Shown: positions 3,599-8,499, counted from the stretch's first letter. The stretch: DNA of 11,947 nt from a virus (IMGVR_UViG_2896601577_000004), one strand, 5' to 3'. Made by a program: numbers and translations. The notes: generated by a model from the letters alone, not told the origin.

Positions 3599-3659
3599 GG
3601 AATCGAACCCGCATCATCAGCTTGGAAGGCTGAGGTAATAACCATTATACGATGCCCGC
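3599..3659 (-). tRNA. tRNA-Gly (anticodon UCC), 3'-truncated: the first 61 nt are present, the last ~14 nt of T-arm/acceptor are replaced by the IS911 left end
   Basis: Minus-strand sequence GCGGGCATCGTATAATGGTTATTACCTCAGCCTTCCAAGCTGATGATGCGGGTTCGATTCC is near-identical to recalled E. coli glyT up to the T-loop, then runs straight into the IS911 inverted repeat. Confidence 0.7.
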
Positions 3660-3662
3660 ATA

Positions 3663-3738
3663 TGGTGCCGACTACCGGAATCGAACTGGTGACCTACTGA
3701 TTACAAGTCAGTTGCTCTGCCTGCTGAGCTAAGTCGGC
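3663..3738 (-). tRNA. tRNA-Thr (anticodon UGU), 76 nt, CCA encoded
   Basis: Minus-strand GCCGACTTAGCTCAGCAGGCAGAGCAACTGACTTGTAATCAGTAGGTCACCAGTTCGATTCCGGTAGTCGGCACCA folds as a cloverleaf with anticodon loop CTTGTAA; close to recalled E. coli thrU. Confidence 0.8.
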
Positions 3739-3740
3739 GC

Positions 3741-3817
3741 TGGCCCACCACCGAGGACTCGAACCTCGCACCGTCAACTTAGAAGGTTGATGCTCTATCC
3801 GGATGAGCTAGTGGTGG
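3741..3817 (-). tRNA. tRNA-Arg (anticodon UCU, reads AGA), 77 nt, CCA encoded; unusual C1:G72 acceptor pair
   Basis: Minus-strand CCACCACTAGCTCATCCGGATAGAGCATCAACCTTCTAAGTTGACGGTGCGAGGTTCGAGTCCTCGGTGGTGGGCCA folds into a full cloverleaf (D stem GCTC/GAGC, anticodon stem TCAAC/GTTGA, T stem CGAGG/CCTCG). Confidence 0.7.
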
Positions 3818-3818
3818 T

Positions 3819-3895
3819 TGGTGGCCCTTGCTGGACTTGAACCAGCGACCTGGCGATTATGAGTCGCTCGCTCTGACCAACTGAGCTAAAGGGCC
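3819..3895 (-). tRNA. tRNA with CAU anticodon, most similar to tRNA-Ile2 (lysidine type, reads AUA) but tRNA-Met cannot be excluded; 77 nt, CCA encoded
   Basis: Minus-strand GGCCCTTTAGCTCAGTTGGTCAGAGCGAGCGACTCATAATCGCCAGGTCGCTGGTTCAAGTCCAGCAAGGGCCACCA resembles recalled E. coli ileX; one A-C mismatch at the top of the anticodon stem. Confidence 0.65.
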
Positions 3896-3983
3896 GGAGG
3901 CAGAATAATAACCATATGTCATCACATCTGCAAACTCATCTGACCACCAGCACGTTTAACGTCCTGTGCCGTTTTTCAGGTAT

Positions 3984-4008
3984 AAAAAAACCCGCATAAA
4001 GCGGGCTC
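3984..4008 (-). terminator. Rho-independent terminator between the Q-like gene and the tRNA array; candidate tR'-type terminator of a lambdoid late operon
   Basis: Minus strand reads AAAGAGCCCGC-TTTAT-GCGGG-TTTTTTT: a GC-rich 5-bp stem (extendable), 5-nt loop and 7-U tract. Confidence 0.55.
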
Positions 4009-4084
4009 TTTCAAATGTCCATGTCTGCTATTCGCCTCGCGGTACAGCTTTGCGAAGCGTACAAGAATTGAAGCAGTTTTTACG

Positions 4085-4507
4085 TCAAAAAGCAATAACT
4101 TTTTTCTCTATACCAAAAGCCATAACCATTGGTTTGTACAAAATAAATTCTGCCACCTTTAGCCAATGCTCAATGCGTCTTTCACAGGTTCTTAAACTCC
4201 ATTTCGGGTGTGCATCATTCAGCAGTTCAGCCATTTTGCGTTTGGTCATCCCCCGCCCCTCATACCGTTGCCGAAGGACGCTAATCAATCCTGGATGCTC
4301 TGCCAGCACCTCACTTATGACCCGATCAATACATAACGCCTCTGCATCAGTACAATGCGCCAGCCAGCTCTTTTGCTTACCGTTAATCATATCCCGCAAA
4401 AAAGCCTCAAGTTCAGACTTGTTCAGACCTGCTTTTTTCATCCTCCGGAGCGCCTCGTTAATTGCCGTTTTTGTCAGCTTTTTAGAGGCCAACAACTGGT
4501 TGAACAT
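4085..4507 (-). CDS. Putative phage late-gene antiterminator Q-like protein (about 140 aa from the ATG at 4507); the longer 193-aa frame back to 4666 starts with TTG inside the IS600 inverted repeat and is probably artefactual
   Basis: Position is Q-like: downstream of nin-region genes and immediately upstream of a terminator plus tRNA array. Loose similarity to recalled 933W/DLP12-type Q (QuuD) around ...HCTDAEALCIDRV...GMT...; no search run. Confidence 0.4.
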   Translation of the reverse strand: MFNQLLASKKLTKTAINEALRRMKKAGLNKSELEAFLRDMINGKQKSWLAHCTDAEALCIDRVISEVLAEHPGLISVLRQRYEGRGMTKRKMAELLNDAHPKWSLRTCERRIEHWLKVAEFILYKPMVMAFGIEKKVIAF

Positions 4508-4638
4508 ATTCCCCGTCTTACCGCCGCCAATATACGACCAGCGCCCCACATGCGCAGTTTTCCCTGAATCCAGACACTTTCCAGCGTGGTGAGACGAAGG
4601 TGTTCCCCGCTTTTGCCTGTATTTGTTGGGTAAATCAT
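4474..4638 (-). CDS. Small hypothetical ORF (54 aa, MIYPTNTGKSGEHLRL...) translationally coupled to the ybcO-like gene in the pre-IS600 sequence
   Basis: Its ATG overlaps the reconstructed ybcO-like stop (TTATGA) and is preceded by AAGGAAGG once IS600 is removed in silico; no recognisable family, W-rich composition. Confidence 0.25.
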   Translation of the reverse strand: MIYPTNTGKSGEHLRLTTLESVWIQGKLRMWGAGRILAAVRRGICSTSCWPLKS

Positions 4639-6759: not shown

Positions 6760-7033
6760 GATTGTAGATGAGTTTATTCTTCAGCAAAAGCAGAAAACCA
6801 GCCTTAAAACCAATCTCTTTCAAAACCCGTAATGATGTGACAAATTCGTCCTCACGCAAAATAAAACCGTCCGTCAGAAGTCCATTACAAAAATAAAATA
6901 ACACAGCACCGCTCTTCCTTTGTTGAGATTGCAAACATCTAATGCGGCAATGGCTGACAATCGCTCCATTCTCAACGCGCACAGCATAGAGGCCATTTTC
7001 ACTAAAAATTTCACGCAATTCTTCGATTTTCAT
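6746..7033 (-). CDS. Hypothetical small prophage protein (95 aa), first gene of a coupled operon
   Basis: ATG at 7033 preceded by GGAAGGA at suitable spacing; 14-nt overlap with the next gene; a sigma70-like promoter lies just upstream. Confidence 0.5.
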   Translation of the reverse strand: MKIEELREIFSENGLYAVRVENGAIVSHCRIRCLQSQQRKSGAVLFYFCNGLLTDGFILREDEFVTSLRVLKEIGFKAGFLLLLKNKLIYNLEQD

Positions 7034-7114
7034 CTTCAGAATCCTTCCAGATAAATAGCTCTCCCCTGTTCGGGGTCCATCCCTCTTCTCCCTGCGCGCT
7101 ACTTAAGTGAGTCG

Positions 7115-7142
7115 ATTCTATCTGCGAAGGTGCGCGAATCAA
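7115..7142 (-). promoter_or_regulatory. Candidate sigma70 promoter for the 95-aa / 216-aa / ybcO-like / Q-like operon
   Basis: Minus strand reads TTGATT (-35), 16-nt spacer, TAGAAT (-10), about 80 nt upstream of the ATG at 7033. Confidence 0.35.
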
Positions 7143-7161
7143 ATTCACCGGAAATAAACAA

Positions 7162-7205
7162 CAAAAAACCCGCCGAAACTCTGAGAGATCACAGCGATGG
7201 GCGGG
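7162..7205 (-). terminator. Candidate 3' terminator of the hok transcript
   Basis: Minus strand CCCGCCC-(25-nt loop)-GGCGGG followed by TTTTTT; a second perfect 9-bp hairpin (GGGCGGGGA/TCCCCGCCC, 7236..7265) lies just after the hok stop without a U-tract. Confidence 0.4.
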
Positions 7206-7282
7206 TTAAGTGCGGGTGCGTTGAGGATGCCTGACACATCAGAGGTGGGCGGGGATGGGATCAGCTCCCCGCCCGGTCACTC

Positions 7283-7438
7283 TTACTTCCTGGATTCGTA
7301 GTCTACGAAGACAGCGACCTCCGTCTGGCCGGTTCGGATTCGTACCTCACAGAGGTCTTTCCTCGTTACCAGTGCCGTCACTATGACGGTTAAACAGATG
7401 ACGATCAGGGCGATTAACATCGCCTTTTGCTGCTTCAT
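7283..7438 (-). CDS. hok: Hok-family type I toxin (51 aa small membrane peptide, HokD/RelF-like)
   Basis: MKQQKAMLIALIVICLTVIVTALVTRKDLCEVRIRTGQTEVAVF... is near-identical to recalled HokD over the first ~44 residues, with the typical single transmembrane helix. Confidence 0.8.
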   Translation of the reverse strand: MKQQKAMLIALIVICLTVIVTALVTRKDLCEVRIRTGQTEVAVFVDYESRK

Positions 7439-7495
7439 AGCCTGCTTCTCCTTGCCTTTCGGCATGTAAGAGGCTAACCTACATGTGCAAAGCAT
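7283..7495 (-). CDS. mok: Mok (modulator of killing) reading frame, same frame and stop as hok with a 19-codon N-terminal extension
   Basis: ATG at 7495 opens a 70-aa frame co-terminal with hok, the arrangement known for mokC/hokC-type loci. Confidence 0.55.
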   Translation of the reverse strand: MLCTCRLASYMPKGKEKQAMKQQKAMLIALIVICLTVIVTALVTRKDLCEVRIRTGQTEVAVFVDYESRK

Positions 7496-7665
7496 GAAAT
7501 TGGCCTCAGATTAATGTTAAGCGTCTTGCCGGACGCGTAATGTTAACTGGGGCTTTTCTCTATCTGCCTTTTAGTGTTCATGCCTGAAGCAGATAGCCTC
7601 AAGCACCCGCAGTCATTCTACTTACCTCGCCAATATGAAATCAATCAGAAAGGTGCCCCATAAAA

Positions 7666-8352
7666 TCACTCCTTCTCTTCTTTACCGTAGTGGAGTTGAC
7701 CAATTTTGATAAGAGGGCGTCCCTGAGATTTGCGGTGTAGATTGGTATCGCGCAGAGAATACACACAGCCACAATATTCCTGCTGATAGAATTTTTCGCG
7801 CTTGCTGATTTCAATCATACGGGACGAGCCTCCCTGCTTGCGCCAGTTATAATCCCAGTACACCATGCCCGGATAATGCGCGACGGCTCGCCGCCCACAG
7901 TCGTTAACCTGCTGCATATTTTTCCAGCGTGAAATGCCCAGTGAACTGCTGATCACACTGAAACCATTTTCAGCGGCGTACAGCGCTGTCCGCTCAAAAC
8001 GCATGTCAAAACACATGGTGCAACGGATCCCTCGTTCGGGCTCCCATTCCATTCCTTTGGCTCGTTCAAACCAGTTGTCTGTGTCGTAATCAGCATCAAT
8101 AAACGGCACGCCGTGTTGTTCAGCAAAGCGAATATTCTCATCCTTACGAATTAAATACTCTTTCTGAGGATGAATGTTCGGGTTGTAGAAAAAGATGGTG
8201 TAGTCGATTCCCGAGGCCTGAAGCGCCTCCATCACCTCACCGGAACATGGAGCACAGCAAGAGTGCAGTAGTAGTTTGTTTGCCCCGTTTGGGAGCTCCA
8301 ATTTGGGCCGTTTGAAATCAGCAACTGTCATAAATATGTTTATTGGGGTCAT
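7666..8352 (-). CDS. queH: QueH-like epoxyqueuosine reductase (DUF208 family), prophage-borne
   Basis: 228-aa ORF with the recalled DUF208 cysteine motifs: HSCCAPCS near the N-terminus, CTMCFDMRF in the middle, YCGCVYS near the C-terminus. Confidence 0.75.
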
Positions 8353-8499
8353 AAAAATATCAAAGAGTGTAGCATTAGAACGGGGCTATCGGAAACAGAT
8401 GTGTGACTGCTCCCCGCCCTTTCGGGCTGAAGTGGCACACTGAATTTGGCCACCTGAACAGAGGTGATATGCTCACCTCAGAACAACACAGGTGCTCCA

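Follow-up and report, generated by a model that had tools for sequence, protein, structure and literature searches.

Identity of the element

In Escherichia coli K-12 the cryptic prophage Rac occupies the ttcA site, with dbpA and ttcA next to its integrase gene intR. Intact prophages of the Rac type, such as those of E. coli FDAARGOS_944 and CFSAN029787, carry queH, hok, rem, a DUF1367 gene, ybcO, a Q-like gene and tRNA genes in this order, and a layout of the same kind (nin genes, Q, tRNA array, late genes) is found in the Shiga toxin (Stx) 2 phages of the 933W/PA16 type. In the Stx2 phage PA16 the order is ninB through ninG, ninH, Q, tRNA-Ile, tRNA-Arg, tRNA-Arg and stx2AB, with stx2A starting 90 nt past the last tRNA gene. 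The stretch of viral DNA IMGVR_UViG_2896601577_000004, whose full length of 11,947 nt is referred to here as the window, contains at 3599-8427 a segment with the Rac-type gene order on its minus strand. This segment is very probably an in-place remnant of the nin / Q / late-terminator / tRNA block of a Rac-type lambdoid prophage at ttcA, the distal half of which was taken away by an inversion involving the insertion sequence (IS) IS911.

All 11,947 bases of the window are 100% identical to GenBank CP026867.1 (assembly GCA_002949895.1, a 4.6-Mb chromosome), a record that was reached via the 76-aa ybcO fusion protein encoded in the window. The order in this chromosome is dbpA, ttcA, two intR fragments, an IS600 fragment, an IS3-family element, a truncated IS911 and queH, and from queH it continues through the Q-like gene to the tRNA genes, IS911, bgl, IS2, IS1, marB, marA, marR and marC. 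Judged only from its load of IS2, IS600, IS911, IS1 and IS3-family elements, the source genome would be of the Shigella type. The 3' two-thirds of intR are retained (11106-11947) and are 99.6% identical to Rac intR, and in the source genome ttcA and dbpA are next to intR with the same layout as in K-12. The segment can be considered an in-place remnant because the intR fragment, ttcA and dbpA adjoin it in their normal order. In the window intR is split into two open reading frames (ORFs) of 116 and 93 aa and in the sister assemblies a single 254-aa fragment is called, which points to an additional strain-specific frameshift or to an assembly error.

The segment is collinear with intact Rac-type prophages, at 97-98.7% nucleotide identity and with the same order and orientation of the module. 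The closest intact copy is that of E. coli FDAARGOS_944 (98.7% identical), which served as the reference for the base-by-base comparison, and the copy of CFSAN029787 is ~97% identical. In CFSAN029787 the module and intR-ttcA-dbpA are ordered and oriented likewise, ~14 kb apart, and early genes of Rac (replication genes, ydaT, cI/cro-like regulators, recE, gam and xisR) fill this interval. In the window, nested debris of IS911, an IS3-family element and IS600 lies between queH and intR in place of these ~14 kb. IS elements and identified genes together make up the entire window. No lysis cassette or morphogenesis genes are found in it, as it is cut by IS911 at 3598/3599, whereas both are present in the intact relatives; therefore the segment is a remnant and not a complete late-control module.

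A first-pass annotation of this DNA had described queH, hok/mok, a 95-aa gene, a ybcO-like gene, a Q-like gene, a terminator and tRNAs on the minus strand, and each of them was recovered at the same position with profile or RNA matches far beyond chance. Its description of a decaying lambdoid nin/Q/terminator/tRNA module was borne out by Pfam, by PHROGs and by the relatives, which moreover identify the element specifically as Rac. The two outcomes that it had named as contrary, a best match to a non-lambdoid element and a lack of nin/Q homology, did not occur.

Late-control region and tRNA array

The Q-like gene, which encodes a DUF1133 protein of 184 aa in its native form, is at 4085-4638 on the minus strand (the ORF extends over 4085-4666). 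It was recognized by Pfam DUF1133 (E = 2.8e-87) and by PHROG 753, described as anti-termination protein Q-like (E = 1.2e-61). A Q-family gene is thus present as the last gene of the early-right operon, although it is damaged in the window copy: one G is missing from a run of five at ~4544 when compared with the relatives, and this 1-bp deletion shifts the frame at codon ~32, so that the first 32 codons (MIYPTNTGKSGEHLRLTTLESVWIQGKLRMWG) are no longer in frame with those that follow. At this place the body of the Q-like protein plus an out-of-frame extension make up the 193-aa ORF. The intact DUF1133 protein of FDAARGOS_944 (locus L001, 9487-10041) aligns with the Q21 antiterminator in PDB (6P18, 6JNX) at E = 4e-4, in its N-terminal residues 13-39, which contain a W..G.L..WG.W.Y.G motif, and in its C-terminal residues 129-181. 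This suggests that DUF1133 is a distant member of the Q21 family, and the protein was likely the late antiterminator of the intact phage.

Downstream of the Q-like gene an intrinsic terminator resembling tR' (a GC-rich hairpin followed by U7, minus strand), strong by its fold and a putative target of the Q-like protein, is found at ~4008-3984 by folding and by conservation. The 111 nt following the Q-like stop codon, which include it, fold with -35.5 kcal/mol (z = -3.98), and both the position of the hairpin and its CCCGC/GCGGG stem are kept in five divergent relatives. A simple consensus scan for terminators missed this Q-proximal hairpin, which is evident from its folding and conservation. 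In the interval from the Q-like stop codon to the terminator, comparison of the relatives brought out a block of ~60 nt (4015-4075, minus strand) that includes the hairpin CGCTTCGC...GCGAGGCG. It is nearly invariant in five relatives (L001, L002, L003 and L015 among them), whereas its surroundings have diverged to 63% mean column identity. The block is a candidate late promoter or Q-loading region of the DUF1133 family. A promoter-like site (TTTGCA-18-TATTAT, 3905-3934, minus strand), detected by consensus scan only, is just upstream of the first tRNA gene and could drive tRNA expression independently of Q.

The array on the minus strand begins with an intact tRNA gene with a CAU anticodon (3819-3895), which ARAGORN called Met and whose identical copies are annotated by PGAP as Ile (Ile2 type). 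It is followed by intact genes for tRNA-Arg(UCU) (3741-3817; ARAGORN; Rfam 56.4 bits) and tRNA-Thr(UGU) (3663-3738; ARAGORN; Rfam 69.8 bits). The fourth member, identified by alignment to FDAARGOS_944, is a glyT-like paralogue for tRNA-Gly(UCC) of which the 5' 61 nt remain (3599-3659) before the IS911 end; a partial Rfam tRNA match is found at 3596-3650. Of the four tRNAs counted by the first-pass annotation, then, three are intact and the last one is a fragment.

The genes for Thr(UGU) and Gly(UCC) in the L001 array (8987-9140) are 98.7% identical to thrU and glyT of the E. coli core genome, and their counterpart in the window (3599-3738) is nearly identical to the tRNA region of FDAARGOS_944. 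In the host thrU and glyT are separated by tyrU. The phage Thr and Gly genes look as if they had been captured from this host operon, and the loss of the Gly copy would cost nothing, since they are near-copies of core genes and hence redundant. The last slot of the array is variable, being Gly-UCC in L001 (8987-9061) and Val-UAC in L003 (16990-17061), and the relatives L002 and L015 do not have the Ile and Arg genes, so the array seems to be a mosaic cassette.

What follows the array could be read from four intact relatives, three prophages and one phage, in which a non-coding spacer of 290-780 bp leads to the holin gene. In FDAARGOS_944 the array Ile-Arg-Thr-Gly is 679 bp from the holin gene and is followed by a class II holin, RrrD lysozyme, an Rz-type lysis protein and terminase, and in CFSAN029787 the array Ile-Arg-Thr-Val is 292 bp from the genes for holin, RrrD and a lysis protein. 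The prophage of L1PEag1 and phage vB_EcoS-683R6 both have Thr-Gly, ~780 bp to the holin gene and a holin, RrrD lysozyme and Rz-type lysis cassette, then trkG. The FDAARGOS_944 spacer has short unannotated ORFs only (at most 92 aa), and the only annotation in the spacers of the four relatives concerns phage 683R6, where the opposite strand has two short ORFs marked as hypothetical. No toxin or other identifiable cargo was found between array and holin in these four. Part of the L001 spacer (8339-8687) is 85% identical to unannotated stretches of several E. coli plasmids and chromosomes, and the full tRNA-spacer-holin arrangement of FDAARGOS_944 is present in only 9 of 5,426 genomes.

In the intact phage, the early rightward transcript would pass through queH, hok/sok, rem, DUF1367 and ybcO into the Q-like gene. 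The Q-like protein would then load on RNA polymerase at a late promoter in the conserved block past its stop codon, where promoter, loading site and function are all putative, and the modified polymerase would read through the ~4008-3984 terminator into the tRNA genes, the holin-lysozyme-Rz genes and the head and tail genes. To judge from its sequence, the window copy of this circuit is non-functional, because IS600 cuts Q off from its operon, a frameshift may affect Q as well, its targets have disappeared, and the genes for immunity and replication have been lost, and also because ybcO and DUF1367 are mutated and the array is cut by IS911 in tRNA-Gly.

The break in tRNA-Gly

The 61 nt of tRNA-Gly that are retained (exactly 3659-3599) abut the IS911 end TGAAGTGGCACAC, and alignment to the intact relative gives CGCTGCCCGCTCCA (14 nt) as the part missing from the window; both the cut after 61 nt and this missing 3' end had been predicted before the alignment was available. 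The IS911 copy found here (2351-3598, minus strand) appears to be recombinant, as its left inverted repeat (IRL) is flanked by tRNA-Gly and its right inverted repeat (IRR) by codon 9 of bgl. This gene for a 6-phospho-beta-glucosidase (934-2319), which IS911 cuts at that codon, is part of an accessory phosphotransferase system island located between marB and eamA; E. coli D6 has marB(+), bgl(-) and porin(-) in this order. In many assemblies IS911 is simply inserted in codon 9 of bgl, with a TTT duplication and the arrangement porin-IS911-bgl-marB, and its IRR flank is identical to that of the window. The exact 461-aa bgl product is indexed in 92 blocks of the sequence collection. The insertion of IS911 in bgl is, on this comparison of assemblies, a lineage marker that would be older than the inversion.

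The orientation of the neighbouring genes indicates what happened at the break. In K-12 dbpA(+), ttcA(-) and intR(-) are ~208 kb from marR, marA and marB(+) in the same orientation frame, whereas the mar genes of the source genome (marB, marA, marR) lie on the other strand with respect to dbpA and ttcA, and the bulk of bgl is directed away from the tRNA genes. A simple deletion between Rac and bgl was rejected, since it would have kept the 5' end of bgl and the porin gene; instead, what remains of bgl is inverted, and so are the mar genes. The retained parts match an inversion between oppositely oriented IS911 copies in tRNA-Gly and in bgl, and therefore a reciprocal junction should exist, or have existed, ~200 kb away. 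The break is best explained by an IS911-mediated inversion of ~200 kb, not necessarily by a deletion, and presumably by a single event. The left IS911 would be the recombinant of a copy in tRNA-Gly and the older copy in bgl next to marB, and recombination between the two would have inverted ~200 kb and removed the lysis and morphogenesis half of the prophage. The earlier proposal that the array had been joined to an unrelated sugar gene and that its cargo was deleted or relocated is therefore right as to the junction with bgl, and the orientation evidence favours relocation by inversion, but the freight to be expected consists of lysis and morphogenesis genes and not of toxin cargo.

Three predictions follow from the inversion model. 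At ~200 kb from the window CGCTGCCCGCTCCAGCGAGATTTGAG would be found, preceded by the IRR end of IS911 (...GACCACTTCA plus a duplication of 3-4 bp); the 5' end of bgl (ATGTCAGGATTTAAAAAAGGTTTTTT) and the carbohydrate porin gene would be on the IRL side of this second junction; and the 3' end of tRNA-Gly would be followed by a spacer of ~0.3-0.8 kb and then by holin, rrrD and Rz genes.

Early-right genes

Upstream of the Q-like gene, nin-type genes were found as DUF1367 and YbcO (a putative nuclease), both of them mutated here. The DUF1367 gene (NinB/Orf-like; 6109-6707 in its native form, ORF 6109-6759, minus strand) was recognized by Pfam DUF1367 (E = 7.6e-94) and by PHROG 319, NinB/Orf recombination mediator. 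The native start codon is the ATG at 6705-6707, and loss of 1 bp at 6703 shifts the frame at codon 3 of the native 199 aa. The 216-aa gene of the first-pass annotation is thus present as sequence, but the real gene is the frameshifted DUF1367 and the 216-aa ORF is the shifted frame starting at an upstream TTG (6759). The same deletion is present in the independent assemblies L013 and L014.

The ybcO (DUF1364) pseudogene is at 5915-6109 (YbcO-like ORF 5879-6109, minus strand; Pfam YbcO E = 3.2e-18). Compared with FDAARGOS_944 it lacks 83 bp, deleted between imperfect 11-bp repeats at ~6000-6010, and the profile match is restricted to positions 2-38 of 92. Moreover IS600 cuts ybcO off from its last 16 nt, so that the 76-aa ORF terminates within IS600; its product is identical in four assemblies.

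The only intact survivors in the segment are hok/sok, queH, rem and the three tRNA genes. The gene queH for epoxyqueuosine reductase (7666-8352, minus strand; start at 8331 according to PGAP) matches Pfam QueH (E = 1.9e-65) and differs by only a few bases from the corresponding region of FDAARGOS_944, where the product is annotated as QueH. The hok/mok/sok type I toxin-antitoxin system is at 7283-7608 on the minus strand, with hok at 7283-7438 and the mok ORF extending to 7495. Hok matches Pfam HOK_GEF (E = 9.8e-23) and is identical to the annotated HokD of FDAARGOS_944, and sok was found by Rfam at 7433-7608 with 116 bits (gathering score 59). Between hok/sok and DUF1367 there is an intact Rem-like gene of 95 aa (6746-7033, minus strand) with a match to PHROG 340 and, in the precomputed annotation, to Pfam PF27490 'Rem'. 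The protein is identical to its copy in FDAARGOS_944.

Insertion sequences around and inside the segment

A complete IS600 (4651-5914, minus strand; orfA 5548-5850, orfB 4694-5512), so named by PGAP in the matching genomes and not mentioned by the first-pass annotation, stands between ybcO and the Q-like gene as a simple insertion, flanked by a TCC duplication (4648-4650 and 5915-5917). It lies 13 nt upstream of the native ATG of the Q-like gene (4638) and interrupts the final codons of ybcO.

At the other end of the segment the first 970 bp of a second IS911 (8428-9397, plus strand), with its IRL toward the segment, break the Rac DNA 96 bp upstream of queH. The two inverted copies that bracket the segment are 100% identical over 971 bp (2629-3599 and 8427-9397) and both have the IRL inward; a further inversion of the 4.8-kb segment could occur between them. 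The right copy is truncated by an IS3-family element of 1310 bp (9398-10708), which also abuts a 5' fragment of IS600 (~10709-11105), has a match to the Rfam ALIL pseudoknot at 10256-10372 and is named 'IS3 family transposase' by PGAP; we take it to be IS629-like. On the other side of bgl, window positions 1-917 are part of an IS2 that is 100% identical to the IS2 of CFSAN029787 and abuts the bgl stop codon, and in the source genome IS2 and IS1 lie between bgl and marB.

In the sister genome CP026866.1 (12500-19500 of locus L011) the tRNA-Gly/IS911 junction is followed by IS66-family and IS110-family elements and not by bgl, and there are extra IS insertions in queH and in the rem/DUF1367 region, so rearrangement at this locus seems to be ongoing.

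Alternative explanations and implications

The layout of the segment had been compared with Stx phages, where stxAB follows the array, and the order in PA16 agrees with this; the positional analogy is real. On this basis the segment could be seen as the upstream half of a toxin-converting, Stx-like prophage whose cargo directly past the array was removed or moved by IS911, an explanation that we regard as extremely improbable. The position is indeed analogous, as stx2AB begins ~90 nt after the last tRNA in the Stx phage, the interval from Q to holin is a known moron site in lambdoid phages, and the array is ~75% identical to that of Stx2 phages. However, the four close intact relatives have only their spacer before the holin-lysozyme-Rz genes, which does not agree with the cargo, possibly a toxin, that had been implied past the tRNAs. 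In the search against Stx phages high identity (98-99%) was confined to IS600 and Stx phages were otherwise unmatched at this level, so the parallel in position stands whereas the relatedness is restricted to IS600 and the ~75% array, and the implied relationship gives way to that with a Rac-type element at ttcA. The absence of an stx-like ORF, also proposed earlier, agrees with tblastn, by which Stx2A and Stx2B had no match in the window (the best hit elsewhere, E = 1.7, was in the relatives L001/L003, and all hits were in L001-L003 with E of at least 1.7). With Stx2A, Stx2B and the Q of PA16 as queries, nothing below E = 1 was obtained, be it in the window, in the 20-kb source loci or among the relatives. 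A link to the stx region of Shigella dysenteriae type 1 was also rejected, as the stx prophage of that organism is located between sapC and ycjW (PMC7819885) and the remnant is at ttcA. The segment ends at the site where Stx phages carry their toxin, but position alone is no evidence of lost cargo. Very improbable, too, is the idea that the distal Rac half, starting from the 14-nt 3' end of tRNA-Gly, survives at the other end of the inversion with a lineage-specific cargo between tRNA and holin that the sampled E. coli relatives do not have, or, in a milder form, that the three tRNAs are selected, Q-independent decoders of AUA, AGA and ACA for Shigella virulence genes. The two IS911 copies that flank the segment in inverted orientation with 100% identity over 971 bp might suggest a composite transposon that brought a phage fragment from elsewhere. 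This was rejected on account of the collinearity with intR and ttcA, in the order and orientation of intact Rac prophages, and of the truncated right IS911, which has no outer end (truncated at 9397). In addition both copies face the segment with the IRL, the outer flank of the left copy is the ancestral insertion site in bgl, and there is no target duplication around the pair, which leaves this origin a probability close to negligible.

Several points weigh against an inverted Rac remnant with a Q-type late-control region. The second endpoint of the inversion (porin, 5' end of bgl, IS911, CGCTGCCCGCTCCA, lysis genes) did not turn up: a search of the genome, viral and metagenome contig collections for GTTTTTGTTGACCACTTCA-N(0-6)-CGCTGCCCGCTCCA gave no match, but this is uninformative, since in a control made on the genome contigs only the junction of the window itself was unmatched too, so that collection lacks the lineage. 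A more complex series of rearrangements is also possible, given that CP026866.1 has IS66-family DNA and not bgl beyond the same IS911. As to the late-control region, the Q-like protein scored just under the threshold of Pfam Phage_antitermQ (25.6 bits, cutoff 26), no experimental antitermination by any DUF1133 protein was found in the accessible literature, and the frameshift of the Q-like gene may be a homopolymer assembly error, because it is in a homopolymer and is not shared by CP026866.1, which has all five G at the ~4544 site and a different 1-bp deletion further on. The remnant could, in addition, be more than debris: the three tRNA genes, hok/sok and queH may have been kept by selection as a domesticated island, the tRNAs decoding AUA, AGA and ACA for AT-rich virulence genes. 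This is compatible with a Rac remnant broken by inversion, and we regard it as unlikely, but clearly less so than the possibilities discussed above. Two sister genomes have kept the three tRNA genes intact and identical although more IS elements have inserted nearby, and the promoter-like site is directly upstream of the array. Nevertheless queH is interrupted by another IS911 in CP026866.1 and is therefore not essential, which argues against strong selection on this gene; the Thr and Gly tRNAs are redundant, the genes of the relative being near-copies of thrU and glyT; and chance lets short genes escape IS insertions.

An inverted and decayed Rac-type remnant illustrates clearly how a prophage in a Shigella-type genome is taken apart by IS600, IS911, IS2 and an IS3-family element, and how large chromosome segments become inverted when IS copies recombine. 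The biology is that of a well-known prophage and of well-known IS elements in a publicly annotated genome, i.e. ordinary genome decay of the Shigella type, and the relevance is mainly to annotation. The ORFs of 216 and 193 aa are best annotated as frames of pseudogenes, and the DUF1133 'Q-like' family, with its conserved block after the gene and its terminator, is a tidy candidate for a Q21-related antiterminator.

Comparison with known systems

The likeness to Stx2 phages lies in the layout and in an array that likewise starts with Ile(CAU)-Arg. The Q of PA16, however, has no BLAST similarity to the DUF1133 protein, the nin genes of Stx phages also differ from those of the window, and these phages carry stxAB whereas the window and the intact relatives do not. 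As Q genes do, the DUF1133 gene lies directly upstream of a terminator, but its protein resembles phage 21 Q (6P18, 6JNX) only weakly and over part of its length, and in the window copy the N-terminal motif is interrupted by the frameshift.

Among the cryptic prophages of E. coli K-12, DLP12 and Qin (ybcO, quuD/quuQ, hokD, rem) presumably have in common with the window the gene families YbcO nuclease, HokD and Rem, names which were also returned by the searches made here, and we take the IS-driven decay of their lambdoid late-control region to be of the same kind. They are nevertheless other prophages at another integration site, and the Q-like protein of the window belongs to DUF1133. The intact Rac-type prophages remain the closest systems; in comparison with them the window copy lacks the genes for immunity, replication, recombination, lysis and structural proteins and has gained IS600, IS911 and small deletions. 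The cryptic Rac of K-12 shares the ttcA site and intR with the window, but there ydaW is directly followed by the rzpR pseudogene, so that K-12 lacks exactly the block that the window has kept.

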